IMG/VR virus record: IMGVR_UViG_3300033076_000347 | Coordinates: 1-37,105 of that record | DNA: 37,105 nt | Strand: one strand, 5' to 3' | Origin: a virus | Lineage: Duplodnaviria; Caudoviricetes | Shown: piece by piece, positions 262 to 21,483 of the stretch | Layout: the number at the start of each line of letters is the position of its first letter | Numbering within the stretch: position 1 is the first letter of the stretch | The notes under the pieces: model-generated | The model's input: only the letters and a program-made list of their open reading frames with translations | What the model was told of the DNA's origin: nothing | The model's database searches: none | Position numbers and translations under genes: made by a program

Positions 262-451
262 GAACCTCCAAGCCTCTTAACAATGCACACCGTGGAGAGT
301 ACCTTGCAGACGAAGTACAAGTCATTGCAAGTAGCTAACACCAAGCTAAAGTCGGGTGTATGTGTTGTTCCCTTGAGAAAGGAATAGATAAAGGAGGATA
401 AGCTGCTTTCAAAAGCATTGTATCTCACAACACAGGGGACTTCTCATCCTC
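262..451 (+). ncRNA. candidate multi-helix structured RNA upstream of the tRNA-like array
   Basis: Non-coding; helices CTCCA 266-270/TGGAG 293-297, CTTGCA 303-308/TGCAAG 326-331, TAGCT 332-336/AGCTA 344-348, TGTGTTGT 361-368/ACAACACA 427-434 enclosing TGCTTT/AAAGCA. Confidence 0.45.
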
Positions 452-457
452 AAACAT

Positions 458-570
458 AGTCAGGTGGCGGAATTGGTAGACGCACCAATGAACAAGGGTG
501 GTAACTCGCAGCCGGAAGCGATGTTCTCAGTTCGTTATCACAAATACAGGTTCGAATCCTGTCCTGACTG
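458..570 (+). ncRNA. tRNA-like RNA 1 (113 nt; 62-nt insert in place of anticodon/variable arms)
   Basis: Acceptor AGTCAGG/CCTGACT, D arm GCG-GAATTGGTAGA-CGC, T arm ACAGG-TTCGAAT-CCTGT; insert folds GTGGTAAC 498-505/GTTATCAC 534-541 and TCGC/GCGA; no canonical anticodon loop; no encoded CCA. Confidence 0.8.
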
Positions 571-720
571 CACTTATACATGGCTATTATTTACCTTGTA
601 CCGTGGCCTCGCGGTTGGGATAGACACAGCTTGAATGATTTTGGTTAGCCATGTACACGTGTGTAACATACGCCATAATTCAAGCAGGGGCGTTGGTGAC
701 TGACGAGATAGTCACAACAT

Positions 721-816
721 AGTCAGGTGGCGGAATGGTAGACGCAGGAGCGGATTGGTTAAACCGTAGTCCTCGAGGTAAGCTCCTCATTACAGGTTCG
801 AATCCTGTCCTGACTA
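721..816 (+). ncRNA. tRNA-like RNA 2 (96 nt; anticodon loop expanded to 30 nt)
   Basis: Same scaffold; anticodon-position stem GGAGC 747-751/GCTCC 782-786, 5-nt variable loop TCATT, loop 752-781 is 30 nt with an internal hairpin GGATT/AGTCC. Confidence 0.8.
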
Positions 817-874
817 CAACCTTTTCATGCATGGACCTCTCGATATAAATGCATGCGGTAGGATGATAAATCGA

Positions 875-894
875 TGACAGCTCGGAAAGACGGC
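875..894 (+). promoter_or_regulatory. TGACA + GAAAGA-loop hairpin motif, copy 1
   Basis: TGACAGCTCGGAAAGACGGC just 5' of unit 3; near-identical copy at 1013-1033. Confidence 0.5.
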
Positions 895-900
895 AAACAT

Positions 901-972
901 AGTCAGGTGGCGAAATTGGCACGCATCCATGAACAACGCGGAAGATTGCAGGTTCGAATCCTGCCCTGACTA
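901..972 (+). ncRNA. tRNA-like RNA 3 (72 nt; canonical size, degenerate anticodon arm)
   Basis: Same scaffold with T stem GCAGG/CCTGC; anticodon stem TCCAT/GCGGA has an A-C mismatch and loop GAACAAC lacks U33 (nominal anticodon ACA). Confidence 0.75.
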
Positions 973-1012
973 CTAAAGGTGCCAACCCCGAAACATTGAA
1001 AGAAAAAGTTGG

Positions 1013-1033
1013 TGACACCTCGGAAAGACGGGG
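1013..1033 (+). promoter_or_regulatory. TGACA + GAAAGA-loop hairpin motif, copy 2
   Basis: TGACACCTCGGAAAGACGGGG; stem CCTCG/CGGGG, outer pairs differ from copy 1 while pairing is kept. Confidence 0.5.
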
Positions 1034-1038
1034 AACAT

Positions 1039-1197
1039 AGTCAGGTGGCGGAATTGGTTAGACGCTTAATGATACGCACGGCAACCGAAACGTAACAGTA
1101 CTCAATGGTTAGGCAATGCGAATAATGAAGGACAATACCTCACAGTGCGTAGGTAAATTTTAAAGTGTTCATGCAGGTTCGAATCCTGCCCTGACTG
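1039..1197 (+). ncRNA. tRNA-like RNA 4 (159 nt; 107-nt insert)
   Basis: Same scaffold with T stem GCAGG/CCTGC; insert 1066-1172 contains helix TACGCAC 1073-1079/GTGCGTA 1145-1151. Confidence 0.8.
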
Positions 1198-1218: not shown

Positions 1219-1482
1219 ATGGAAAACAATCCACAACAAAAGTTGACACTCGGGGAGTCGAGATGTCATATCAATTTCAATCCATCTTCAGATGATAAGA
1301 TTGGAGCATTCAAACGTATGATGGCTGATGCCATTGACTATTGCAATCAAGAAGCAAGAAGCTCAACATTATCAAATGTAGATTTTAGCGAGCAAGTAAG
1401 ATGTTTTGAAATCGCAATGGAACATTTAGAAACCGCACAGATGTATGCAGTAAAGGGCATTGCCAAGGGGTTAAAGAAATGA
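1219..1482 (+). CDS. Acb2/Tad1-hairpin-like protein, putative immune-signal sponge
   Basis: 87 aa; TLGESR..INFNPS.DDKI..FK..MADAID and AMEHLETAQMYAVKGI resemble the helical-hairpin pattern of Acb2/Tad1-like phage proteins. Confidence 0.55.
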   Translation: MENNPQQKLTLGESRCHINFNPSSDDKIGAFKRMMADAIDYCNQEARSSTLSNVDFSEQVRCFEIAMEHLETAQMYAVKGIAKGLKK

Positions 1483-1820
1483 AAAGAATAATTAAATTAG
1501 ACCTTCTACAACAAGAGGTTTTGTTGTTGGAGAATGAGGTAAGTATTGCTTCTCAAATCGATTTCTTCCTGAGTGATTCAGAAGCAGAAGCTTCTGCTCA
1601 AGAGTTGAGAAGATTGCCCGTTGCGTTTAGGCAGTGGCACACAAAAAGCGGTGTGAAAAACCTAATGGTAATCCACGGTGAACGAGACTTGGCTATGATT
1701 TCAAGGGTAGTTACGCTTGCTGCTTTTGATATTCTGAGACATAAAAATGTTGAGTCAGAAGAAATGGTAGCACTGCTTGTACAACTATTGATGGATAACA
1801 TTTACGAAAAACAGAAATAA
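1479..1820 (+). CDS. hypothetical protein
   Basis: 113-aa ORF, ATGA overlap with the upstream stop and TAATG coupling with the downstream gene. Confidence 0.7.
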   Translation: MKRIIKLDLLQQEVLLLENEVSIASQIDFFLSDSEAEASAQELRRLPVAFRQWHTKSGVKNLMVIHGERDLAMISRVVTLAAFDILRHKNVESEEMVALLVQLLMDNIYEKQK

Positions 1821-2437
1821 TGAAAAGAGTTAGAGTAAATCAAATAGCTGAGATGTGTCATCAAGTGAACAAAGCTTGGTGCAAGATTACGGGTGATGAT
1901 TCTCAAGTTGATTGGGACTTAGCTCCTGAGTGGCAAAAACAATCAGCTACAGAAGGAGTCTTGTTTATATTAGCAAATCCAAACGCAAAGGAAGATGCTC
2001 AGCACAATGCTTGGATGGCAAGTAAAATAGCTGACGGTTGGGTATACGGAGAGGTGAAAGATGCAGAGAAGAAGACCCACCCTTGTATTGTCCCATTCAA
2101 TGAGCTTCCTTGGGAACAACAAATGAAAGACAAGTTGTTCTGCATTATCGCTGATTCACTTGCAGACATACCCAATCTTATGACATTCGGCCAAGCTATT
2201 GAGCACGCCAAGAGAGGTAAGAAGGTAGCCCGTGCAGGGTGGAATGGTCAAGGTATGTATGCGTACATTGTGCCGGCCAATAGCTACCCCGCTCAGACTG
2301 ACGTAGCTCGTAAAGAGTTTGGTGAAATGGTTCCTTACCGTACCTATTGGGCGCTGAAGACCGCACAGAATAACATAGCAACTTGGGCTCCAAGCGGTAG
2401 CGACTCACTTGCTGAAGATTGGATGGTTGTAGAATAA
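1820..2437 (+). CDS. RyR-domain / DUF2829 (Tad2-like) fusion protein
   Basis: N-terminal RyR motif HNAWM..KIADGWVYG..KDAEKKTHPCIVPFNELP..QQMKD; C-terminal MTFGQAIE..KRGKKVARAGWNG.GMY...WAPSGSDSLAEDWMVV typical of DUF2829/Thoeris anti-defence 2. Confidence 0.85.
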   Translation: MKRVRVNQIAEMCHQVNKAWCKITGDDSQVDWDLAPEWQKQSATEGVLFILANPNAKEDAQHNAWMASKIADGWVYGEVKDAEKKTHPCIVPFNELPWEQQMKDKLFCIIADSLADIPNLMTFGQAIEHAKRGKKVARAGWNGQGMYAYIVPANSYPAQTDVARKEFGEMVPYRTYWALKTAQNNIATWAPSGSDSLAEDWMVVE

Positions 2438-2788: not shown

Positions 2789-3067
2789 ATGGCAGAAGAA
2801 AAAATCTTTGCTGATGGTTTCTCTTTCAAGAGAAACGAAAACGCTCCTGACTTTGTTGTCGGTCGAGTAAGTATTAAAGTTGAAGACGCAGTTGCGTTCA
2901 TGAAACAAAATGCTAAGAACGGATGGGTCAACCTTGACGTTAAGCAAGCACGTAGTGGTAACTACTACATGGAGCTCGACACCTTTGAACCAAAGGGTAG
3001 TGGCAAGGCGTCAGCCCCCGCTAAATCAGATGCTCCCGCAGAAGAGGATGATGACATCCCGTTCTAA
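2789..3067 (+). CDS. putative single-stranded DNA-binding protein
   Basis: 92 aa, beta-rich N-terminus with aromatics, low-complexity linker and acidic tail EEDDDIPF; next to the primase-helicase. Confidence 0.7.
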   Translation: MAEEKIFADGFSFKRNENAPDFVVGRVSIKVEDAVAFMKQNAKNGWVNLDVKQARSGNYYMELDTFEPKGSGKASAPAKSDAPAEEDDDIPF

Positions 3068-3083
3068 TCCATTGAACCTATAA

Positions 3084-3110
3084 AGAGGGGGATTAATTCC
3101 CCCTTTTTTT
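3084..3110 (+). terminator. intrinsic terminator
   Basis: AGGGGGA-TTAAT-TCCCCCT followed by a T-run, downstream of the SSB-like gene. Confidence 0.8.
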
Positions 3111-11541: not shown

Positions 11542-11552
11542 CCGCACTTTTT
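11527..11552 (+). terminator. intrinsic terminator where the two gene blocks converge
   Basis: GTGCGGTT-CGAGT-AACCGCAC followed by TTTTT. Confidence 0.75.
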
Positions 11553-14500
11553 ATTTCCCTCCCGATCCGAATCCTCCTTCAGATCCGAACCCACCTTTCT
11601 TCTTGCTCTTACCTGAGCTTGATCCTGATCCGAATCCTCCTTCAGATCCGAAACCTCCCTTCTTCTTAGGAACGTAGTCGTAGAACTCATCCTTCATTCT
11701 TCTCTCAAGAGAATCCATCTCATGCTTTAATTTTTTCTTAGCTTGTTCAGCGTCATACCCCGGTGAGTTCTTTCCGAATACCTCCTCATACAACTCAGGA
11801 TCGTAGCGCTTCATATCCTCTCTGTTCTCGTACCCGTGAAGCATCTCCTTCTCAGCCTGCTTTTTATCAGCGGCTTTCTTGTCAGCATCGCGAAGGTCTT
11901 TGTAAATCTCTTTCATCACTTCCTTCTTCACGTCTTTGTAAAGAGGGATCATTCCCATATTACCCAAGACTTCAAGAGGGATTCTGATTGTATTCTCCTT
12001 CTCTCTTCTCTCGATAGCATCCTCTTCTTTCTTTTCCTTAGAGGCAATATTATTGATGATAAGGTCAGTTGTCTTTAGCGCAGGAGAGAATGCTCCGGTC
12101 ATGTTTAACATAAAGTCACCAATACCTGTATCACCAAACTTCTTTTCTTTTGGTACAGCAGAGAATGAGATGGCGTCTGTATACGGATCGTAATCACCGT
12201 TTCTTAAGTCAGTCAAAAACTCCTCATTCACTTCTTCAACTCCAAGGCTTATCAAGCTCTTTGTGAAGTTACCAAAGTTTCTTCCGAGAGCTAATGATGT
12301 AAATGTGGACGTGAATGCCTGACCAAGTTTTTGCATCAATGTCTTCTCATCCTCTTCCTCCTCATCACCAAGAAGACCACCCAATCCTTGAGCAAACATG
12401 TTAGTCATCAATGTATACACAGTCATACGTGTGGTTACTGCAGCAAGCAAAGCAATACCTTCCTTCCTTGATATAGAGCCATTACCAACCGCCGCATAAA
12501 TACCTTGACGAGCAGTGGTGTATTCGTATATCGCGAATCGAGTCATATAGTTATTGAAGTTATTGAAAATCTTGGTAATAACTCCCTGATTTGCTTTAGA
12601 AGTACCTTTAAGTATACCCATAAATGAGTTGTCAGTAGCTCCGGCAAGTACAGACATCTCGTCAGCGCGTAGTTTAGACGCATTGATCGCATCCTTATAC
12701 TGCCTCATATAAGCCTCATTACCTTCAGCAATCTTCTTGAAGTCAACCTCAACGCCTGATTGTTTTTTAAACTCAGTAGCAAACTGACCAAACCAAATCG
12801 GTCTCATTATAACCCTATCAGGAGTAGAGATTAGCGTATCAGCAATAAGCTCAACACCATTCTTGTACTTCTTCAAGGACATATTATAAATCTGATTGGC
12901 TTTATTAGCAATAACACCCTTGGCTGTGGTTGATTTAATACCACTCGTCTGACTAAGAACGGATTGATCAATGAATCTTCCGCTCAATGTATCGCCGTGA
13001 TACAATCGAGTTATCTGCTTACTCTTCACATTCTCCATGATCTTTACAGCATCAGGAGATGATATGATGTTAAAGTACTTTAGACCGGCAGTAAACGCTT
13101 CTCTCCCTGCTATTAAAGCAAATCCTACGTTGGATGACACTTCCGCAATAAACCTTAACGATCCCGCAAGTACAGCTCTATAACCCTGCTTTGAAATAAA
13201 GTCAACAACAGCATCGCCAAATGATGTGGCAACGAAGTTGTTGGTCAATACATTTGAAACAGACTCTTCAAAACCATTTCTAATAGCGTTGAAGATTTCG
13301 CGTTGCTGTTTTGTAAAGTCATCACCATATCTATTCTCGACCTCATTAAGCGTCTTTCTCGCCGTTCTGATAGGAGAAGTCATATGGTAGTCTAAGAGTG
13401 TAAATTTAGCCCCTCTCTGAGCCGATGCGAAGACGTCAAAGTTAATTGCCTTTGCACCCTGTGTTCTTTCAACAAGGTTCTTACCTTTTGAAGATGGTTG
13501 CAATGCGGCATTGTAGTTATTTGAAAGCTGTGTTGCAGTTACGCTATCGTCCGGATTGTATTCAGCCATTACAGGTAAGTGGATGTAGTTATTAAGTACA
13601 TCGATTCTCTGACCTCTGATTACAGCGGCTGTGAACATAGCCTTCTCAGTTAAACCATCATTGATTTCTCTGATTGTTTGGATGGCATTCTTCTCAGCAT
13701 TGTTGAACGACTTGTAAAGCGCGTCCTTATCCACATCTCCATTCTCATTAAGAATTCTTTGAAGCATCTCAATCTCAGCATCACCATATTTAGTGCTATC
13801 TTTCTTGATTGACTTAATTGTTTCTTTAATGTAGGCAGATGCAGGATTCACTTGCTTGCTTCCGGGATTGCTCTCGTATTCAAGTTGGATCATGTAAGCC
13901 ATCATCCTGAAAGAAGACTCTAATTTTTTATTAGCGTCGTAAGAGAATGATTTAGCGACAGCATCTTGAGCGGCATCCAATTTTTTATTTACTTGACCGA
14001 GTGATGATTGGAATGAAGCCTGTGCTTCTGATATTTTCTCCCACAATGCATTGAAGATTGGCTTTGATTTAAAGTTGCCAAGCACCTGATCAATGAAGAA
14101 TAAACCACCACCTCTGATCATCTCAGAAGTACCTGACCTGTTGGTCCATCTTCCAAAAAGTTTAGCCTTCAAGTTATTGTAAGCCTTAGAGACTGACAAC
14201 GGAGAAGCGTTAGAAACAGAGTCACCAACAGGAGTTGATTCCTTGACAGCGTTTAATTTCTCAAACATCAACTCACCATAGTGAGGCATGTATCCATTGT
14301 TGATATTGTCAATAAGCTTGATCAAGTTGTTAAGCTGAGCAGTAGTCAACTGACTTAGTAGCTCAGGCTTTAGTAGTCTTCTGATATTATCAGCCAACTC
14401 TCTCTCATCAGCAAATTGCAAACCATCCAAGTTCACCTTGGTGTTATTGATGGCGTCTATAAGTAATGCATTCTCAGCCTTCACCTCAGCCTCAGTCTTC

Positions 14501-17500
14501 TCTTGCTTTTCTTCCTTAGGGAAGATGACAGACTTGAACTTCTTCATGAGTTCAGCTTCTTCTGCAGTGATGACATCTTCTTTTGCCATTCTATTCACCG
14601 TCTCAGCATACTGAACTTTACCGGTTTCTTCGTCAACTACCTTGTTATCGTAGTTCTCGAATCGAATAGATAGCTCTTGGCTTTTTGAAACCTGCTCATC
14701 CAATGCTTGAAGTATTTTATTGATGTCCTGAGCTACTTGATTCACCTCATTCAATGGAAGGACGGCGCCGCTTGCAGAGAACATGTCAATGATCTCAACA
14801 TACTTATCGAATACTTCATCAGGGATTAGCATTGGATTTACTGCCAATAACTTTCTCATCGGATCAGCAATAGCGTTAGCGATACCGATCTTTGACTTCA
14901 AGTTCTTTCTTGCCTTAACAATCTTACCTCTGATACCTTGAATCTTCTCAGCGTACTCAGCATCATTGAATACTTTAGTCATGTAGTCAACGAATCGATC
15001 CACTGATTCCTCGTTAAGCATGTCCACTTTACTGAACCTGCGAACAACATCAGCCAATTGCTTTGTTGATATCTTACCTGACTTCTTAAGTTCCTTTATG
15101 GCCTCAGATAACTGATCGCTTGCAATCATGAAAGCTTTCTTCGCGTCACGAGCACCCTTAGCCAAATCTTTGAAGTGTAGTTTAAGCAATTCCTTTTCAG
15201 ACAGGGTGATGTTCTTTGGATCGGGTAGCTTCTTGAATAAGTCAACAAGCATTTTACCCACAGATGGAGCAGACTTCTCACGCTTACCAAACTCGGCACG
15301 TACATTACGAACCAACTGCTCACGTTGTGAGTCATTGGCTCTCTCGTAAACCTTAGACTTCATGACATAGTTCATCACGTTGTCCATAATCTTGTCGTAA
15401 GGCACACCTCTTCTCATTGATTTCTCAATGATGTTATTTGCCTCCTCCAACATCCGGTCGTATCCTTCGATTATAGTCACGCTCTCCTTAAGTCTACCTC
15501 CACCCAAGTCAATGCGTTGCATTTTAACATTGAATGGATTAAACTTCTTTCCTCTCGGATCAACAATGTAGATACCACCACCATATCCTTCAGGAGTTGG
15601 CTTAGATCTCTTAGCACTGAAACCAAATCGAGCAAGCTCGCGTGCCAATGCCTGCTCATTCGCAGTCTTCGGACCGAAACCTCTGTCATTGATATTGTAT
15701 CGCTGAGCAATCTTCTTAATCTCTTGTAGAGTGGCAGCATCCGGGCGTTGGAATTTAAGCTTGTTCTTTACAGTAACAGCATTCTCATCAAATACAACAT
15801 AGTTAAATCCTCTTGCTGTTTCTGATGTTGCCCCACGAGAAATACTTTCAGCAGGGTATTTTACTCCATCAATGCCGTTTTCAAGAAGGAATAATGAAGC
15901 GTTTTTAGCACCCCCCATTGATCTGCCGCCTAAAGCATTAGCAAGTTTTCTATAAAATTCACCTTCTGTATTTATGCCGCTTAATCCATAGCCAAACGCT
16001 TGTTCTCTTTGAGCTTCTGTAAGTTTTGATATTAACTCATACGCTCTTTGTTTATTTAAAGGCTTATCCCATTCTAACCAATTGTATTGGTCAGGAGTTT
16101 TACCCTCATGAAGAGAGACTTCATATAATTTCCCGGTACTTCTTTTGGTTATTTTTTTACCCTTTAACTCATCAATATAAGTCAGCATTTCTTTTTCTGC
16201 CTGCTCTGAATAATATTCTCCGGGCAAAGAAAGTCTACGAACAATTTCATCGTATCCGTTTTCGTAAATACTTGCTAAAGTTGCAAAATAAAACTGACCC
16301 TTATCTTTTATATTAGTGTTCAGGCCGACCTCATTTCCATCTACTATAAAATACGTATCACCTAATTGCTTAGCATATGACTCGGCAATACTTTTTAAAT
16401 CAGTAAAGTATAATCCCCATCCAAAAGATTGATTACCTTCACCTGTTCCAATCTTTTCAGTTGTGAACCTATCGAAATCATGAGGGCTACCATGGAATGC
16501 GTTAACTTGCTTCTTAACTTTCTGAGTAAGTATCTGTTTATCGCGGCTAATATCTTCAGTCTTAGAAAAAGGAGTTTGACGACGAGCTTCAGCATTCATT
16601 CTTTTTCGAGTTTCAACATTACGAGATTCTACCTCTCCGGCAAATCTTTCGTAAACATCGAAGAAGTTTTGCTCTCCATATGTATACCTAACTATCTCAT
16701 TTAACCTATTTCGAATTGCTTGTATTTGTTTTTCAATTTTAGCCTGCTCTGCTGAATCTTTAGCTTTATTAAATTGAATCTGAAGATCTAATCCTTTCTT
16801 GAATAAATTATTAAAGTTTTCATTGTTATTCATTAACTCATCATACATTTCATCTACCCTGTATGACTCAGCTTGGTATAAATTAGCACCTCTTTCAAAC
16901 CCTTCTATATCTTGTATAGCATGTTGAACTTCATGAAGCAGTGTGCCAATACTGTCCATTGTTCTAACACTAAGATCGACCTCTATGGTGTTTGTATTCG
17001 GATTCCAACTTCCTTCGCCATTTCCTTCATTGCTAAATATTATATTAATATCAGCTAACTGAGGATACATTTTAATCAAATCATTAGATAGGATATCGAC
17101 AGCTTTTGCTCGCGCTCCTTTAGCTTTATTTTTTAAAATAATTTCCTTAACTAATCGAATAGTATTTTGAAATAAAGGTATATCATCTACGGTCTCATAC
17201 CTCCATTTGCCATCAATACCTTTTTCCCATCCTGTAGCGATTCTTATGGTTTCAGGATCCTTACCGGAATCTTCCATCTGTTTAGCTACATCTAAGTCAG
17301 CTTTAACTTCCTGACTTAATGAGGCTTTTTCACCAACGATTTGCGTTCTCGTCCCTGCGCTACCTGTTCTTCCCTTACCTTCTCTGAAAAACTTTGAAAG
17401 GTCTTCACCTCGAGCCATTGAATCTGAGATGGTGACCATGAACTCAAGGATGTCCTCAGGAGTTGCGTCCTCTAAGAAGATCGGCTGACCGGTGATCTTG

Positions 17501-20500
17501 ACTGCAACAGCGTTAAATACTGCCTTGATTTGAGTAAGTAAACTCTTCGCTTTTGGTGTAAGATTATCATAGGTAATTCCTGAAGCTGTAAGCAATCCTC
17601 CAAGCTGAACCATCCACTCTTCTGCCTGTACATTTGAAGCGGCGTACTCAGGTGTATTTGCAAAAGCATCAAGCTCATTGATGATAGCAGTCATTCCATT
17701 ATCTCGAAGCGCTTTCTCAATTCCTTTTTTGAATTCTTCAAACAGCTCAGGGTTATCACCAAATGCTTTTATCAATATACCATGCCATACCTCGTGAGGT
17801 AGAGTAGTAGTGTCAGCTACTTCCTCATTAACGAATATAGCAATTGGATTATCTGATTCATCATTAATGATGGCACCACCTTCGCTACCAACAAATGAGT
17901 TAGCTACGTCCTCGTTAAAGTTTTCGCGAGCATGAGCTATCATTTCATCCGCATTAACAAATGACAATACTTGAACATCAGGGAATATTGACGCTAATGA
18001 TTTGGCTGTATTTCTAAATACCTCAGCTTTATTGGCTGCTCTTCTCGGCTGTAGTTTCAACTTCTTAGCGTCAGCTCCGGAGATCTTTACGCGGTATACC
18101 TTGTCCTTAAGAACCTCAGTCTTACTAAGGCCAATAGGAATACCAAATACCTTACGTGGCACATCTCCCTCAACAGCCGGAATCTCCTGTACTTGATTTC
18201 TATATTGATCAGGCACATCCTCCATCGATGCAAAGTCAAACGTGTAGGTTTTATTATTATCAAATACCATATCAGCCTGTTCTTTGAAGGCTTCTTTAAC
18301 CTGTCTTCCTGTAGCTTTTACAGTAACTGAATTATCTTCATTTCTCTGTATTTGGTATCCACTAAAATCTAATGGTACACCTATTGAATTTTCAAAGTTT
18401 AATTCGTATTCAGTATTATCATCTAAGTCATTAGCCCAAGACGCATCCGTAGTTCGCATAGCTCTTTCACCAAAAATTTTATCAATTATTTTTTTAGCGT
18501 CTCGTTGATTTTCTGATAGATCGTTAAAGTAATCCTGAGCTATAGTGCTTTCATTTCCTTTTAATTCACTATAAGTTGTTTGATCTGCATCAACATACAT
18601 CGATTGAACATTATCATTCTCTCGATCACTAACCTGAGAAAGAGCTTCAGCCAAAGTCTCCTCGTCATTGAACAAGTCAGTAGCTCTTTCAGGAGGGGCT
18701 ACTTGAATCTTATTACCTCTGATAACAGTTTTCTTTTTGCGATCAGCCTCCTCTCTTAACTTCTTGTTTGGAAGCTCCTTAAGCTCTTCATTAATCGCAT
18801 CAATTCTTTCTCTCTGCTTCGCTGTTAATGACTGATCTTTTCCATCAACCTGACGCTGCAAATCTTTTCTCTCTTTCAATAGATTCATCGCCTCCTTCTT
18901 TCCTTCCAAGCTTAAGTTATCAGGCAACTCTCTGAATAAACCAACAGAAGCTCTGTAGTTATCCAACATATCTTTACCTTCCTTACGCGTCATCAATCCT
19001 GACGCTATCTTTCCATTAAGCTCAGCCACGAAAGCTGACTGAAGATTACTATCGTTTGCATATGACTCAAATGCCTTGAAGATATTATCATCCATACCTA
19101 AGTAACCTTTCTTTGTATAGGCTGCGCTAACAGCAGATGGCATACCAAGAAGGAAACCACCTACAGCCTCTTGCGCTCCGGCTTTGGCTACGTCTTTTAC
19201 ATACTCAGCTGTAAGGAAGTCAGGATTCTTAAACATATCCTTCTCCTTAGCCAAGTTGTAAATATCTTTTATCGCATACTCAGCCACCTGTTGAGCAGCA
19301 CCGGTCTCAGCCTCAGCAAGAGCGGCACCTGCCAATGTCAAAGCACCTCTTGCAGCCATACTATTCACCTCGTTCTTTACGAGTTCACCAAAAGTCTTAG
19401 CAGTTGTTGTAGCTCCGGCTTTACCCATGGCGCCAAGGATCACCTTATTCATCAATCCTTTATTGGCAATGATGTTTCTAAAACCAATCTCCTCAAGCGC
19501 AGCTGTAGCTAAACCAATAGGGATAGCAATCGACTGCTTTTCAGCTTCTGATATATCTGCAAAATCAGGATTATTCTCCATCTCTTGATATACAGCGTCA
19601 GTTGACTGAGCGTACATCTGAGCTGTTCTTTGCGCCCATCCCATTGGACTTGTGCTACCAATCATAGCGGGCAAAGATTTAACTACACCGGCATATACAC
19701 CTCCCCAAAATCCTTCCTCCTTGAGATTTCTAAATTCTACAGTGGTATCATCATCACCCCAAACAATCTCATTTCCGGCACGAACCGCAGGCAATAATGT
19801 CTTCTTTACATCTTTCTTGATATCATCATTTGACTTGTCAACGATAGCTGTCTTTTGATCAGAACTCAAGCTATTCCACCAATCCTTATAGGACTGACCG
19901 GCAGCAGGCATTGGAATAGCGTCAGGAGTTCCTATAGGAACAGTCTTAGTATTTCCTTTAGCCCTCTCTTCTTCAATAGCTTTATTTCTTCTTTCATTGA
20001 TCCTGTACGCATTTGAAACAGCTACGTTATCCTTAGCGTCCTGTTCTAAATTACCTGTAGCCTTGTTGTCAGTAACCTGTTGAGTCATTTCTTCCTCATC
20101 CATACCGGTAACATACTTACTAAACATCAGATCAACTGCGTTATTTACAAATCCGGCACTTATGTTTGCAAATCCTTCAGCCAACCAATCATTGGTTGCT
20201 CCGATCCAAGTACCCTGCTCCTTCTTCATAGCATCGTAAGCACCCATTGATCGCTTGAGAATGGTATATCTTGAGTCAAGCATAGTTTGCTTCGCTTCCA
20301 ATTCTCCTTGCTTCTTTGCAAGATCAGCCTTCTTAGCTATTGCATTGTTATATTGCTGCTTAAACTCAGGAGTATTTTTATTCTTTTGAGAATTGAGAGT
20401 AGCCAACTCAGCCTCAAGATTTTTTCTTTCTTGCAAGAAAACATTGGTCTCTGATTTAAATGAATTGGCGTCAGTGTTAAACTTACCCAAAGCATCTTCA

Positions 20501-21483
20501 ACATCCTTCTCGGTAGTGAATATCTTATCTCTTTTTCTGTACTCTTGCTCAAGTGCTGCTAAGCCTGTAGCCTTAGAATTTTCCCTTATGAAGTTTTTTA
20601 ACTTCTCAGCCTCAACACTTGTATTGCCCGGAGAAAAGAAGTCGATATCTAAAGACACTTCCAATTCTTTCCCATTGGGTGCAGTGACAGTCATCCAATC
20701 TCCTGTAGCTCCGGACTCTTCAAACTTGAATCCCATTGGACCAAACTGATAGTTCATCTTTGGAACAACAAACTCTTCGTTCTTCTCTATAAGATCAGGA
20801 GTAATGGTGCCGAGTAGTTTCTCTACAGTTGGTGCCTCAGGTTTTTGCTCTTGTTTCTTTGGTGTTTTTTCCTCAAGTGGAGTACCTTTCTTGTAACCAC
20901 CTGAAGCCCACCACTCAGCATCCTTGGCTGCGCCGAACTGAGCGTACTCATTGTTAGCCAAAGCATAGTCAATGGCCTCATTAACAGGAAGCTCTACGAG
21001 CTTGCCATCTTTCTCAACGATTGTTGGGAATGCAATGTATTTACCATCCACTTCAGCGGACGCCATCTTGTGGGTAGAGAATGATCCATCAGGATTAGCG
21101 ATGGACTTCTCAGGATTGTACATCCTTTGAACAAAGTTCTTCCCTAATAACTCTTCTTGATAAGACTTGCCGGCTCCTGCAATATTAGCGGGAGACTGCG
21201 AAGCCGAAGAAGAAGCGACCGAAGGTGATGCCGTAGTACCTGACTGTTCTTTTTTTTTTAATGGCTCTTGAGTTTCAACTTGCGGAGTCAATTGATTATT
21301 CGCGCCTGTAAGTTGAAGAAATTCATTCATCGACTTTCTATACCCTTGGCTTTTAACGTAAGAGAAATTGTCTTCCTGAACACTTAAATCAGTATGCAAT
21401 AAATTTATGAAATCCTGTTTTGATTTCTTATAACCTAAAGATACCGCTCTATCGTAAAGATCTTGTATTACCTGCTCGTCCAT
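11551..21483 (-). CDS. giant (3310 aa) polyvalent virion/ejection protein with two HExxH zincin domains, LPD23 and ADP-ribosyltransferase-like domains
   Basis: TLPHEVWH; AKQME..GKDPETIRIATGWEKGIDGKWRYE (LPD23-like); TLLHEVQHAIQ..EGF; AFHGSPHDFDRF....IGTGEG.QSFGWGLYFT...NYVVFD (ART-like); last gene of the virion operon. Confidence 0.85.
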   Translation of the reverse strand: MDEQVIQDLYDRAVSLGYKKSKQDFINLLHTDLSVQEDNFSYVKSQGYRKSMNEFLQLTGANNQLTPQVETQEPLKKKEQSGTTASPSVASSSASQSPANIAGAGKSYQEELLGKNFVQRMYNPEKSIANPDGSFSTHKMASAEVDGKYIAFPTIVEKDGKLVELPVNEAIDYALANNEYAQFGAAKDAEWWASGGYKKGTPLEEKTPKKQEQKPEAPTVEKLLGTITPDLIEKNEEFVVPKMNYQFGPMGFKFEESGATGDWMTVTAPNGKELEVSLDIDFFSPGNTSVEAEKLKNFIRENSKATGLAALEQEYRKRDKIFTTEKDVEDALGKFNTDANSFKSETNVFLQERKNLEAELATLNSQKNKNTPEFKQQYNNAIAKKADLAKKQGELEAKQTMLDSRYTILKRSMGAYDAMKKEQGTWIGATNDWLAEGFANISAGFVNNAVDLMFSKYVTGMDEEEMTQQVTDNKATGNLEQDAKDNVAVSNAYRINERRNKAIEEERAKGNTKTVPIGTPDAIPMPAAGQSYKDWWNSLSSDQKTAIVDKSNDDIKKDVKKTLLPAVRAGNEIVWGDDDTTVEFRNLKEEGFWGGVYAGVVKSLPAMIGSTSPMGWAQRTAQMYAQSTDAVYQEMENNPDFADISEAEKQSIAIPIGLATAALEEIGFRNIIANKGLMNKVILGAMGKAGATTTAKTFGELVKNEVNSMAARGALTLAGAALAEAETGAAQQVAEYAIKDIYNLAKEKDMFKNPDFLTAEYVKDVAKAGAQEAVGGFLLGMPSAVSAAYTKKGYLGMDDNIFKAFESYANDSNLQSAFVAELNGKIASGLMTRKEGKDMLDNYRASVGLFRELPDNLSLEGKKEAMNLLKERKDLQRQVDGKDQSLTAKQRERIDAINEELKELPNKKLREEADRKKKTVIRGNKIQVAPPERATDLFNDEETLAEALSQVSDRENDNVQSMYVDADQTTYSELKGNESTIAQDYFNDLSENQRDAKKIIDKIFGERAMRTTDASWANDLDDNTEYELNFENSIGVPLDFSGYQIQRNEDNSVTVKATGRQVKEAFKEQADMVFDNNKTYTFDFASMEDVPDQYRNQVQEIPAVEGDVPRKVFGIPIGLSKTEVLKDKVYRVKISGADAKKLKLQPRRAANKAEVFRNTAKSLASIFPDVQVLSFVNADEMIAHARENFNEDVANSFVGSEGGAIINDESDNPIAIFVNEEVADTTTLPHEVWHGILIKAFGDNPELFEEFKKGIEKALRDNGMTAIINELDAFANTPEYAASNVQAEEWMVQLGGLLTASGITYDNLTPKAKSLLTQIKAVFNAVAVKITGQPIFLEDATPEDILEFMVTISDSMARGEDLSKFFREGKGRTGSAGTRTQIVGEKASLSQEVKADLDVAKQMEDSGKDPETIRIATGWEKGIDGKWRYETVDDIPLFQNTIRLVKEIILKNKAKGARAKAVDILSNDLIKMYPQLADINIIFSNEGNGEGSWNPNTNTIEVDLSVRTMDSIGTLLHEVQHAIQDIEGFERGANLYQAESYRVDEMYDELMNNNENFNNLFKKGLDLQIQFNKAKDSAEQAKIEKQIQAIRNRLNEIVRYTYGEQNFFDVYERFAGEVESRNVETRKRMNAEARRQTPFSKTEDISRDKQILTQKVKKQVNAFHGSPHDFDRFTTEKIGTGEGNQSFGWGLYFTDLKSIAESYAKQLGDTYFIVDGNEVGLNTNIKDKGQFYFATLASIYENGYDEIVRRLSLPGEYYSEQAEKEMLTYIDELKGKKITKRSTGKLYEVSLHEGKTPDQYNWLEWDKPLNKQRAYELISKLTEAQREQAFGYGLSGINTEGEFYRKLANALGGRSMGGAKNASLFLLENGIDGVKYPAESISRGATSETARGFNYVVFDENAVTVKNKLKFQRPDAATLQEIKKIAQRYNINDRGFGPKTANEQALARELARFGFSAKRSKPTPEGYGGGIYIVDPRGKKFNPFNVKMQRIDLGGGRLKESVTIIEGYDRMLEEANNIIEKSMRRGVPYDKIMDNVMNYVMKSKVYERANDSQREQLVRNVRAEFGKREKSAPSVGKMLVDLFKKLPDPKNITLSEKELLKLHFKDLAKGARDAKKAFMIASDQLSEAIKELKKSGKISTKQLADVVRRFSKVDMLNEESVDRFVDYMTKVFNDAEYAEKIQGIRGKIVKARKNLKSKIGIANAIADPMRKLLAVNPMLIPDEVFDKYVEIIDMFSASGAVLPLNEVNQVAQDINKILQALDEQVSKSQELSIRFENYDNKVVDEETGKVQYAETVNRMAKEDVITAEEAELMKKFKSVIFPKEEKQEKTEAEVKAENALLIDAINNTKVNLDGLQFADERELADNIRRLLKPELLSQLTTAQLNNLIKLIDNINNGYMPHYGELMFEKLNAVKESTPVGDSVSNASPLSVSKAYNNLKAKLFGRWTNRSGTSEMIRGGGLFFIDQVLGNFKSKPIFNALWEKISEAQASFQSSLGQVNKKLDAAQDAVAKSFSYDANKKLESSFRMMAYMIQLEYESNPGSKQVNPASAYIKETIKSIKKDSTKYGDAEIEMLQRILNENGDVDKDALYKSFNNAEKNAIQTIREINDGLTEKAMFTAAVIRGQRIDVLNNYIHLPVMAEYNPDDSVTATQLSNNYNAALQPSSKGKNLVERTQGAKAINFDVFASAQRGAKFTLLDYHMTSPIRTARKTLNEVENRYGDDFTKQQREIFNAIRNGFEESVSNVLTNNFVATSFGDAVVDFISKQGYRAVLAGSLRFIAEVSSNVGFALIAGREAFTAGLKYFNIISSPDAVKIMENVKSKQITRLYHGDTLSGRFIDQSVLSQTSGIKSTTAKGVIANKANQIYNMSLKKYKNGVELIADTLISTPDRVIMRPIWFGQFATEFKKQSGVEVDFKKIAEGNEAYMRQYKDAINASKLRADEMSVLAGATDNSFMGILKGTSKANQGVITKIFNNFNNYMTRFAIYEYTTARQGIYAAVGNGSISRKEGIALLAAVTTRMTVYTLMTNMFAQGLGGLLGDEEEEDEKTLMQKLGQAFTSTFTSLALGRNFGNFTKSLISLGVEEVNEEFLTDLRNGDYDPYTDAISFSAVPKEKKFGDTGIGDFMLNMTGAFSPALKTTDLIINNIASKEKKEEDAIERREKENTIRIPLEVLGNMGMIPLYKDVKKEVMKEIYKDLRDADKKAADKKQAEKEMLHGYENREDMKRYDPELYEEVFGKNSPGYDAEQAKKKLKHEMDSLERRMKDEFYDYVPKKKGGFGSEGGFGSGSSSGKSKKKGGFGSEGGFGSGGK
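11564..11652 (-). repeat. 26-bp exact direct repeat within two KKKGGFGSEGGFGSG units
   Basis: GATCCGAATCCTCCTTCAGATCCGAA at 11564-11589 and 11627-11652. Confidence 0.9.

Follow-up and report, generated by a model that had tools for sequence, protein, structure and literature searches.

A family of tRNA-Leu-like shells with constant frames and exchangeable inserts in phage genomes

A virus record of 37,105 bases, hereafter called the window, carries four leucine-tRNA-like units in which a constant shell encloses a variable insert. Comparison of these units with related viral loci shows that the cargo turns over at fixed slots while the shell stays constant, and that one cargo, insert 4, occurs both free and within shells and is a selected RNA in its own right. 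We tentatively read the units as leucine shells with exchanged cargo which the host would cut into stable, non-decoding RNAs, the cargo probably acting on host proteins in the conflict between phage and host; taken as a whole, we hold this explanation at slightly less than an even chance.

The four shells and the RNA elements around them

Table 1 Features of the array region in the window
Feature	Position	Strand	Details
Second constant-end element	362-451	+	5' part 362-384, 3' part 427-451, 42-nt variable middle
Shell unit 1	458-570	+	Insert 484-545, 62 nt; G73
Conserved spacer RNA	571-716	+	Ends in leader hairpin 696-715 before unit 2
Shell unit 2	721-816	+	Insert 746-791, 46 nt; A73
Leader hairpin before unit 3	875-894	+	TGAC, stem, GGAAAGAC-type loop; family D3
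Shell unit 3	901-972	+	Insert 925-947, 23 nt; A73; tRNA-sized
Leader hairpin before unit 4	1013-1033	+	
Shell unit 4	1039-1197	+	Insert 1066-1172, 107 nt; G73
Cargo-4 RNA	1070-1170	+	62 viral loci; covariation; no Rfam family
Cargo-4 pseudoknot	1074-1079 with 1145-1150	+	
Cargo-4 palindromic loop	1097-1102	+	
Cargo-4 closing helix	1130-1134 with 1166-1170	+	Variable-arm position
Cargo-4 hairpin	1136-1140 with 1151-1155	+	
Acb2/Tad1-family gene	1219-1482	+	PF24729, 32.8 bits (cut-off 27); directly behind unit 4
RyR-domain and Tad2 gene	1820-2437	+	PF11195, 79.4 bits

The original prediction described an array of four tRNA scaffolds, and both the unit coordinates and the four insert lengths were re-derived as claimed (Table 1). 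The identical 7-bp acceptor stem and the perfect 5-bp T stem are found in all four units, which also have a U at position -1 in common, and the cloverleaf frame is in each case the minimum-energy fold or lies no more than 1.1 kcal/mol above it. A leucine-like D arm is likewise present throughout, but it is not identical between units: relative to the others, unit 2 has one U fewer, unit 4 one U more and unit 3 several differences. The change at pair 49:65, from A-U in units 1 and 2 to G-C in units 3 and 4, had been taken as covariation; the pairs are as described, but may reflect one inherited event, and among the 318 distinct units of the family (see below) this pair is A-U in 255, G-U in 37 and G-C in 25. 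The middles of the four units are mutually unrelated and, as predicted, none forms an anticodon loop with U33; the combination of a 5-bp anticodon stem with a 7-nt loop, U33 and a leucine anticodon is found in none of them. No unit has an encoded CCA.

Inserts 1, 2 and 4 had been said to form helices of their own in place of the anticodon arm. Taken singly, inserts 1-4 are no more stable than their shuffles (folding z of -0.55, -0.88, -0.70 and +0.21, respectively), and the claim is carried instead by evidence from the family, which is strong only in the case of insert 4; homologues of inserts 1-3 are too scarce for an analysis of covariation. The cargo does stand in the place of the anticodon arm, but in many family members it fills the variable arm too. 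Insert 2 is predicted to form an extended stem at the anticodon position and a variable-arm hairpin, and the last helix stops 2 nt short of the T stem in the case of unit 4 and 3-4 nt short of it in units 1 and 2. Unit 3 has no variable-arm helix before its T stem; given its tRNA size, an anticodon stem with four of five base pairs and a 7-nt loop (with G32 and A33), we regard it as a minimal shell rather than a cargo carrier. ARAGORN, expected to return pseudo or undetermined calls, gave tRNA-??? for unit 2, in keeping with that expectation, and tRNA-Cys for unit 3, and left units 1 and 4 uncalled, while Rfam matched units 1 and 3 to its generic tRNA model only (RF00005). A contig of an RNA run covers 456-564 with one difference. 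The RNA runs are kept as contigs that carry neither ends nor strand and may contain DNA, and they are silent on processing; runs with small shares hold shell pieces with other inserts, from other phages.

The shells are flanked by further elements. That at 362-451, which has complementary hairpin loops in its constant ends and abuts the leader of unit 1, belongs to a family in which, across the fetched loci, the same ends enclose 15 distinct middles of 25-76 nt; contigs of one RNA run cover its constant parts deeply, and it is absent at this place in the sister contig L167. The spacer at 571-716 is identical to L167 over 139 nt, has relatives in L084, L140, L156 and L172-L175, and is kept at the same place even in relatives with one shell only. 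It has no Rfam match, and double changes at 3 of 30 pairs in six sequences hint weakly at a consensus fold. The leader-hairpin motif precedes 47 of the 318 units. An antisense promoter lying over this leader, sought with a Bacteroidota promoter motif, was rejected, as it accompanies 12 of the 318 units only. The spacer between units 3 and 4 (973-1030) recurs before other units in L024, L045, L057 and L126/L127, and so is likely to be another small RNA module. Upstream, 266-300 together with 337-360 weakly match the abiF RNA motif (21.9 bits against a gathering score of 37, E 2.3), and in L167 the stretch behind this match carries an additional module. Within the window, no promoter was detected ahead of the array; sigma-70 sites occur at chance level, and a terminator-like site lies at 3087.

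Constant frame and exchanged cargo across viral loci

A 29-nt pattern retrieved 119 viral stretches and a 20-nt pattern at least 119, with an estimate of about 230, while a scan of 185,579 species genomes yielded 16 stretches, all in records titled MAG or uncultured. From 294 loci (T5 excluded) and the window, 422 units were extracted, 318 of them distinct; these come from 256 sources, some of whose loci overlap, so that the figure is not one of 256 phages. Single-linkage BLAST groups the inserts into 244 families, and seven of the 318 units proved to be mis-parsed and were excluded from later counts. The phage records matched by the shell halves hold ordinary tRNA-Leu and other tRNAs, and the one further match is the uncultured podovirus MW202828, a public complete genome with an unannotated shell at 523-629 that overlaps no tRNA annotation and has a compensated acceptor stem. 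Among 50,697 phage records, blastn of 400-1210 gave no match and no cultured member with the common acceptor stem was found.

The patterns selected the 5' half of the shell, and C74 and the purine at 73 lay outside them. C74 is nonetheless present in 308 of the 318 units, a purine at 73 in 309 (A73 in 279, G73 in 30) and U48 in 287. In a set of 97 loci, reached through cargo, protein or flank queries (four of them by a pattern ending in the first seven bases of the shell), 30 of 31 shells have U-1 and all 31 have purine 73, C74 and U48; the acceptor stem is the same within one change in 29. Other, fully paired acceptor stems are found in 8 of 227 shells, some with cargo families of the common shell, and a compensated stem also occurs in L344. 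Compensated stems beside a dominant acceptor sequence indicate that the fold is selected and that one sequence lineage dominates. The canonical tRNAs of the same loci are mostly without an encoded CCA, having C74 in 164 of 191 and C75 in 31 of 191.

Insert lengths range from 20 to over 150 nt, with a median of 59 nt. The 223 inserts with a standard D arm and a length of at most 160 nt have a mean folding z of -0.80, with 30 below -2; that the inserts beat their shuffles as a set, and that insert 4 covaries, bears out the earlier proposal of selection on the fold. Three of these 223 pass even a loose test for a canonical-type anticodon arm. In 88 of them, against 22.6 in shuffles, exactly 2 nt separate the end of the last helix from the T stem; when one insert per family is taken, this holds for 68 of 172 against 13.4. 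The helix is an internal one, and hence a variable arm, in 86 of the 88. No sequence motif shared among the inserts stands out, and 6-mer palindromes are not a general cargo feature (89 of 223 against 135 in shuffles). A general pseudoknot between a strand at the anticodon position and the interior of the variable arm is suggestive only, with a mean score of 9.82 against 8.87 (maximum 9.47 in 300 permutations) and 31 strong cases among 88 against 23.1 expected (maximum 33). Over 20 unit-rich loci, RF00005 was the only Rfam family to reach the gathering score. Outside full shells, hits were obtained for 19 of 233 cargo families, mostly in truncated or variant shells, and clearly free-standing homologues were seen for insert 4 alone.

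The exchange of cargo is seen most directly in L167, which is 100% identical to the window over 1-336, 578-716 and 817-867. Its slot 1 holds insert 2 of the window, identical in slot 1 of L167 and L090, and its slot 2 an unrelated insert, and between the two contigs positions 73-76 stay with the slot rather than with the insert. The slot behind the spacer RNA contains six different inserts in six phage types (the window; L167; L172/L173/L175; L174; L084/L140; L156), and insert 1 occurs twice in L374, with unrelated flanks. Across the family, 63 of 65 insert pairs that are at least 85% alike share neither flank, while of the four pairs with both flanks alike three differ in the insert, a ratio in which unchanged slots are undercounted because identical units were collapsed beforehand. 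The swaps are read from assembled contigs, and any single case may be an assembly chimera. Slot exchange and the recurrence of cargo families in shells with compensated stems uphold the view with which the analysis began, that of a constant scaffold with variable structured cargo.

A recombinase gene of the Sak type is found in L167, two genes before the counterpart of the window's first gene. Proteins of the Sak type are described as promoters of recombination where sequences are short or diverged (PMC5499656, PMC8093625), so that exchange by way of the shell halves is plausible. At about 2883-3600 in L140, an HNH-like ORF, recognised by eye, stands where a shell has its 3' end, and the final bases of that shell are repeated behind the ORF; homing by way of this ORF could aid exchange. 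Some shells (in L098, L103, L084, L140, L078, L081, L041 and L339) have a second insert inside the D loop, and in L098 and L084 this insert bears its own T-arm-like hairpin. In L144, a shell of another kind, whose D arm is reduced and whose T stem differs, houses the cargo family of L035/L074/L075.

The frame itself is that of a leucine tRNA. The D arm is identical, and the T arm nearly identical, to that of Bacteroidota tRNA-Leu(CAA) from MAGs fetched via the scan matches, with which the shells also share A15:U48, A73 and the absence of an encoded CCA, whereas acceptor pairs 1-3 and 7 differ and the U33 anticodon arm is missing. Kept from the decoding tRNA-Leu are thus the 7-bp acceptor stem, the D and T arms and the elbow contacts, and the core bases U8-A14, G18-U55 and G19-C56 are present. 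RNase P and the CCA-adding enzyme recognise coaxially stacked acceptor and T stems, U-1, a purine at 73 and C74. The shells carry all of these, and we infer from these marks that they go through the same maturation as host tRNAs. The determinants of bacterial LeuRS are A73, the D/T core contacts and how the variable arm is oriented, and leucylation does not require the anticodon arm, as far as the available text of PMC2377443 goes. Since LeuRS has no need of that arm, units with A73 may be chargeable and leucylated, which would explain the leucine frame; G73 in units 1 and 4 counts against their own leucylation.

Cargo 4 inside and outside shells

The loci of the cargo-4 RNA were retrieved with a 20-nt pattern taken from insert 4. 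In the 61 scorable loci and the window, 45 matches are free, 15 lie in a shell and two in a degenerate shell. The closing helix, with 21 variants in 44 distinct sequences, is paired in 94% against 53% with shuffled partners (maximum 71% in 2000), and a 6-mer palindrome, in ten different sequences, is present in the loop region in 32 of the 44, against 10.3 when shuffled (maximum 22 in 1000). Pairing is also complete in two short helices, whose three variants apiece are too few for a test. One side of the pseudoknot and of the inner hairpin was fixed by the search pattern; in L026, from a model search of 100 sources, the pseudoknot is changed on both sides. Within shells the closing helix takes the place of the variable arm, and shell-borne copies keep the helices and the palindromic loop, through which dimerisation is predicted.

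Proposed mechanism, alternative readings and genome setting

In the explanation that we favour, the island would be transcribed as one message from which RNase P, 3' trimming and the CCA-adding enzyme would release the units, with the spacer RNAs as a by-product, and the A73 units could then be leucylated. Cargo would move by single-strand-annealing recombination in the 25-30-nt identical halves of the shells, with the Sak recombinase as encoded in L167. The least certain steps are that the cargos would serve as protein-binding decoys or inhibitors, diversifying like protein anti-defence genes, and that cargo 4 would work as a loop-loop homodimer. A counter-defence role is suggested by the two sponge genes behind the array, by the variability of the island and by a diversity and turnover like those of anti-defence genes. 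In a bolder form, which we think possible but unlikely as a whole, phages would share hundreds of folded RNA effectors in the manner of an RNA integron, housed in leucine shells, matured by the host, leucylated and directed against defence; free-standing RNAs would be captured into the shell and swapped between slots via its identical halves, and some cargos would multimerise through palindromic loops.

An alternative that we consider improbable would make the shell itself the effector, a charged or chargeable mimic of leucine tRNA that soaks up factors reading its acceptor end or its elbow (toxins that acetylate tRNA or modify its 3' end, LeuRS or EF-Tu), with the inserts as tolerated passengers that need only fold. 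Such a mimic would account for LeuRS determinants kept beyond what cutting alone needs, for a unit 3 almost without cargo, and for the dominance of one acceptor sequence (29 of 31 within one change) where the acceptors of canonical phage tRNA-Leu vary widely. However, cargo 4 is conserved and covaries with or without the shell, the same cargo families occur in shells with other acceptor stems, and G73 stands in 30 of 318 units; sequence uniformity would, moreover, also be expected from repeated recombination. We rate just as low the idea that the shells are punctuation or recombination repeats, that is, sites at which RNase P would mature the RNAs and messages next to them and repeats by which small modules would be shuffled, the inserts having fallen in by recombination. 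Such a role would suit the spacers, which are conserved RNAs or small ORFs in their own right, the gain and loss of modules between sister phages, and the 34 distinct contexts of free cargo 4, in six of which the RNA begins no more than 12 nt from a tRNA or shell 3' end and in 19 of which it stops at a leader hairpin. A minimal 72-nt shell would nevertheless be enough for it, the variable-arm geometry and the bias to A73 point to synthetase recognition, and cargo inside shells retains its helices and palindromic loop. Punctuation can also be compatible with our preferred explanation of exchanged, host-cut cargo.

The specific targets first proposed for the array fare less well. The shells had been suggested as decoys for PrrC, RloC or PARIS, enzymes that, in the available text of the sources, act on the anticodon arm of particular tRNAs (PMC12409363, PMC12445682, PMC2610378); a canonical anticodon arm is absent from the shells. 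According to PMC12409363 and PMC12445682, particular tRNAs are the targets of AriB and OLD, and the known phage answer is a functional tRNA that replaces the one attacked, which makes a decoy role against anticodon nucleases unlikely. The suggestion that the cargos target host or phage sequences as antisense or guide RNAs, for which hypervariable middles in a constant frame recall repeat-spacer logic, drew no support from searches of genomes and window, and we give it very little credence: against the rest of the window, the four inserts have longest matches no different from those of shuffles; in searches without positive control, insert 1 matches none of 401 genomes from the phylum of a Flavobacterium MAG, which may not be that of the host, and insert 4 has three short matches (E 0.003-0.01); and the conservation of cargo 4 is structural. 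With respect to a CRISPR-like array, insert lengths are uneven, these searches give no foreign match in its support and no effector gene was seen among the scanned ORFs of the window.

Two further origins appear to us the least credible; they cover the refuting cases of the original prediction, spliced inserts and evenly decaying tRNAs, neither of which was encountered. Were the inserts introns whose splicing gives ordinary tRNAs, as proposed for Lak megaphages, the 265 calls that ARAGORN makes on the 318 units when introns are allowed might be counted in favour, but these spread over 23 labels with Leu in 36 only, as by chance, no conserved exon remainder of the anticodon stem or loop that would rebuild the arm is found across the 244 insert families, canonical arms number 3 in 223, the median insert has 59 nt, and no intron family or known intron fold was matched in Rfam. 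Evenly decaying tRNA pseudogenes or selfish repeats at the DNA level (MITE-like, with 8-bp terminal inverted ends) would fit the inverted repeats flanked by TA in most units and the HNH-like gene at the 3' end of one shell (L140), but decay is uneven, a nearly invariant frame enclosing unrelated middles, the tertiary-contact bases, C74 and G-U wobble variants are kept, and acceptor changes are compensated.

The closest precedent of the shells is RNA1 of phage T5, which together with RNA2 (AY543070: 30501-30644 and 32959-33083) is annotated as 'tRNA-like stable RNA with unknown functions'. RNA1 shares with them U-1, a Leu-type D arm, the T arm, an insert where the anticodon would be, a helix in the variable arm that ends 2 nt before the T stem and a place among tRNAs and other small RNAs; it differs in having another acceptor stem, one copy and a retained stem at the anticodon position. 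We know it from its GenBank annotation, and our literature search returned no paper on it and no record of cargo exchange. In tmRNA, a chargeable tRNA top half, served by a synthetase that ignores the anticodon, likewise bears a folded domain on a variable-arm-like helix. The shells differ from it in having U3-A70 in 301 of 318 units, an intact D stem and far shorter cargo; they show neither the G3-U70 alanine identity, nor a stemless D loop, nor a tag frame, and ARAGORN finds no tmRNA in the window.

Other comparisons rest on sources of which parts were available. The engineered tRNA scaffold (PMC3753655), as presented there, keeps the acceptor, T and D arms, takes up foreign RNA at the anticodon position and is recognised by cell factors, just as proposed here; the shells differ from it in being natural, arrayed and exchanged, and their cargo often closes as a variable arm. 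Allo-tRNA polycistrons, in the accessible text of PMC5389517, are irregular tRNA-like arrays near toxin-antitoxin genes, some of whose RNAs are charged yet unused in translation, but have 8/4 or 9/3 stems and anticodons in contrast to the 7/5 architecture of the shells without a canonical arm. The 'introns' in tRNA-like genes of Lak megaphages are identical across samples, as far as described in the text available (10.1101/356790), and differ in having intron-less versions and assignable anticodons, whereas removal of a shell insert leaves no conserved tRNA. GOLLD, ROOL and manA are orphan structured multimeric RNAs in the part seen of 10.1101/2024.12.08.627333, and kissing loops have been shown for manA (10.64898/2026.07.01.735769, likewise in part), to which the covarying self-complementary loop of cargo 4 is akin; cargo 4 has no Rfam match to any of them, is about 100 nt long and rides in a tRNA shell. 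The word 'phage' is absent from the available main text of a review of non-canonical tRNAs (PMC7609411), and a literature search that left most subscription papers and supplements outside its reach found no description of the shell family. As far as these searches reach, the system of exchangeable cargo and the capture of a free RNA are undescribed, while the type of molecule has precedent.

With the family, the curiosity of T5 RNA1 becomes a system open to testing, in which one part is constant, another varies and near-identical phages offer natural swaps. Should the cargos be effectors, the tRNA regions of phages would hold a large unannotated reservoir of functional RNAs, which gene callers would miss or mislabel as pseudo-tRNAs and whose logic would resemble that of anti-defence protein islands. 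The shells would be a natural version of the engineered tRNA scaffold, and their design rules, a leucine frame with cargo closed as a variable arm, would be useful for RNA expression in Bacteroidota.

The window also encodes virion proteins, a primase and a helicase. The primase shares 77% identity with that of MW202828 and finds its cultured matches mostly in phages of Bacteroidota, from which we infer a host in that phylum. In relatives, the array region is of variable content and is bounded by an exonuclease gene and a homologue of ORF 2789-3067; in L167, the Sak recombinase and this exonuclease are encoded just upstream of the array. The product of the Acb2/Tad1-family gene is predicted to be a signal-sponge anti-defence protein and has no significant match among PDB sequences. 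That of the RyR-Tad2 gene, also a predicted anti-defence sponge, matches the Tad2 structures 9eib and 8v3e (E 1.3e-30) and is close to ModTad2; ORF 1479-1820 has no relative in viral contigs. Among 150 nearest ORFs, drawn from 289 non-redundant neighbours of family members, one belongs to a known anti-defence family (Tad6), 124 have no Pfam match, and two RNA ligases and one CCA/poly(A) polymerase head domain are also found. Since a shell is present in only 6 of 30 loci with an Acb2-like gene, the link to anti-defence appears to be local. In the virion region, a single ORF of 3310 aa extends over 11551-21483 on the minus strand.
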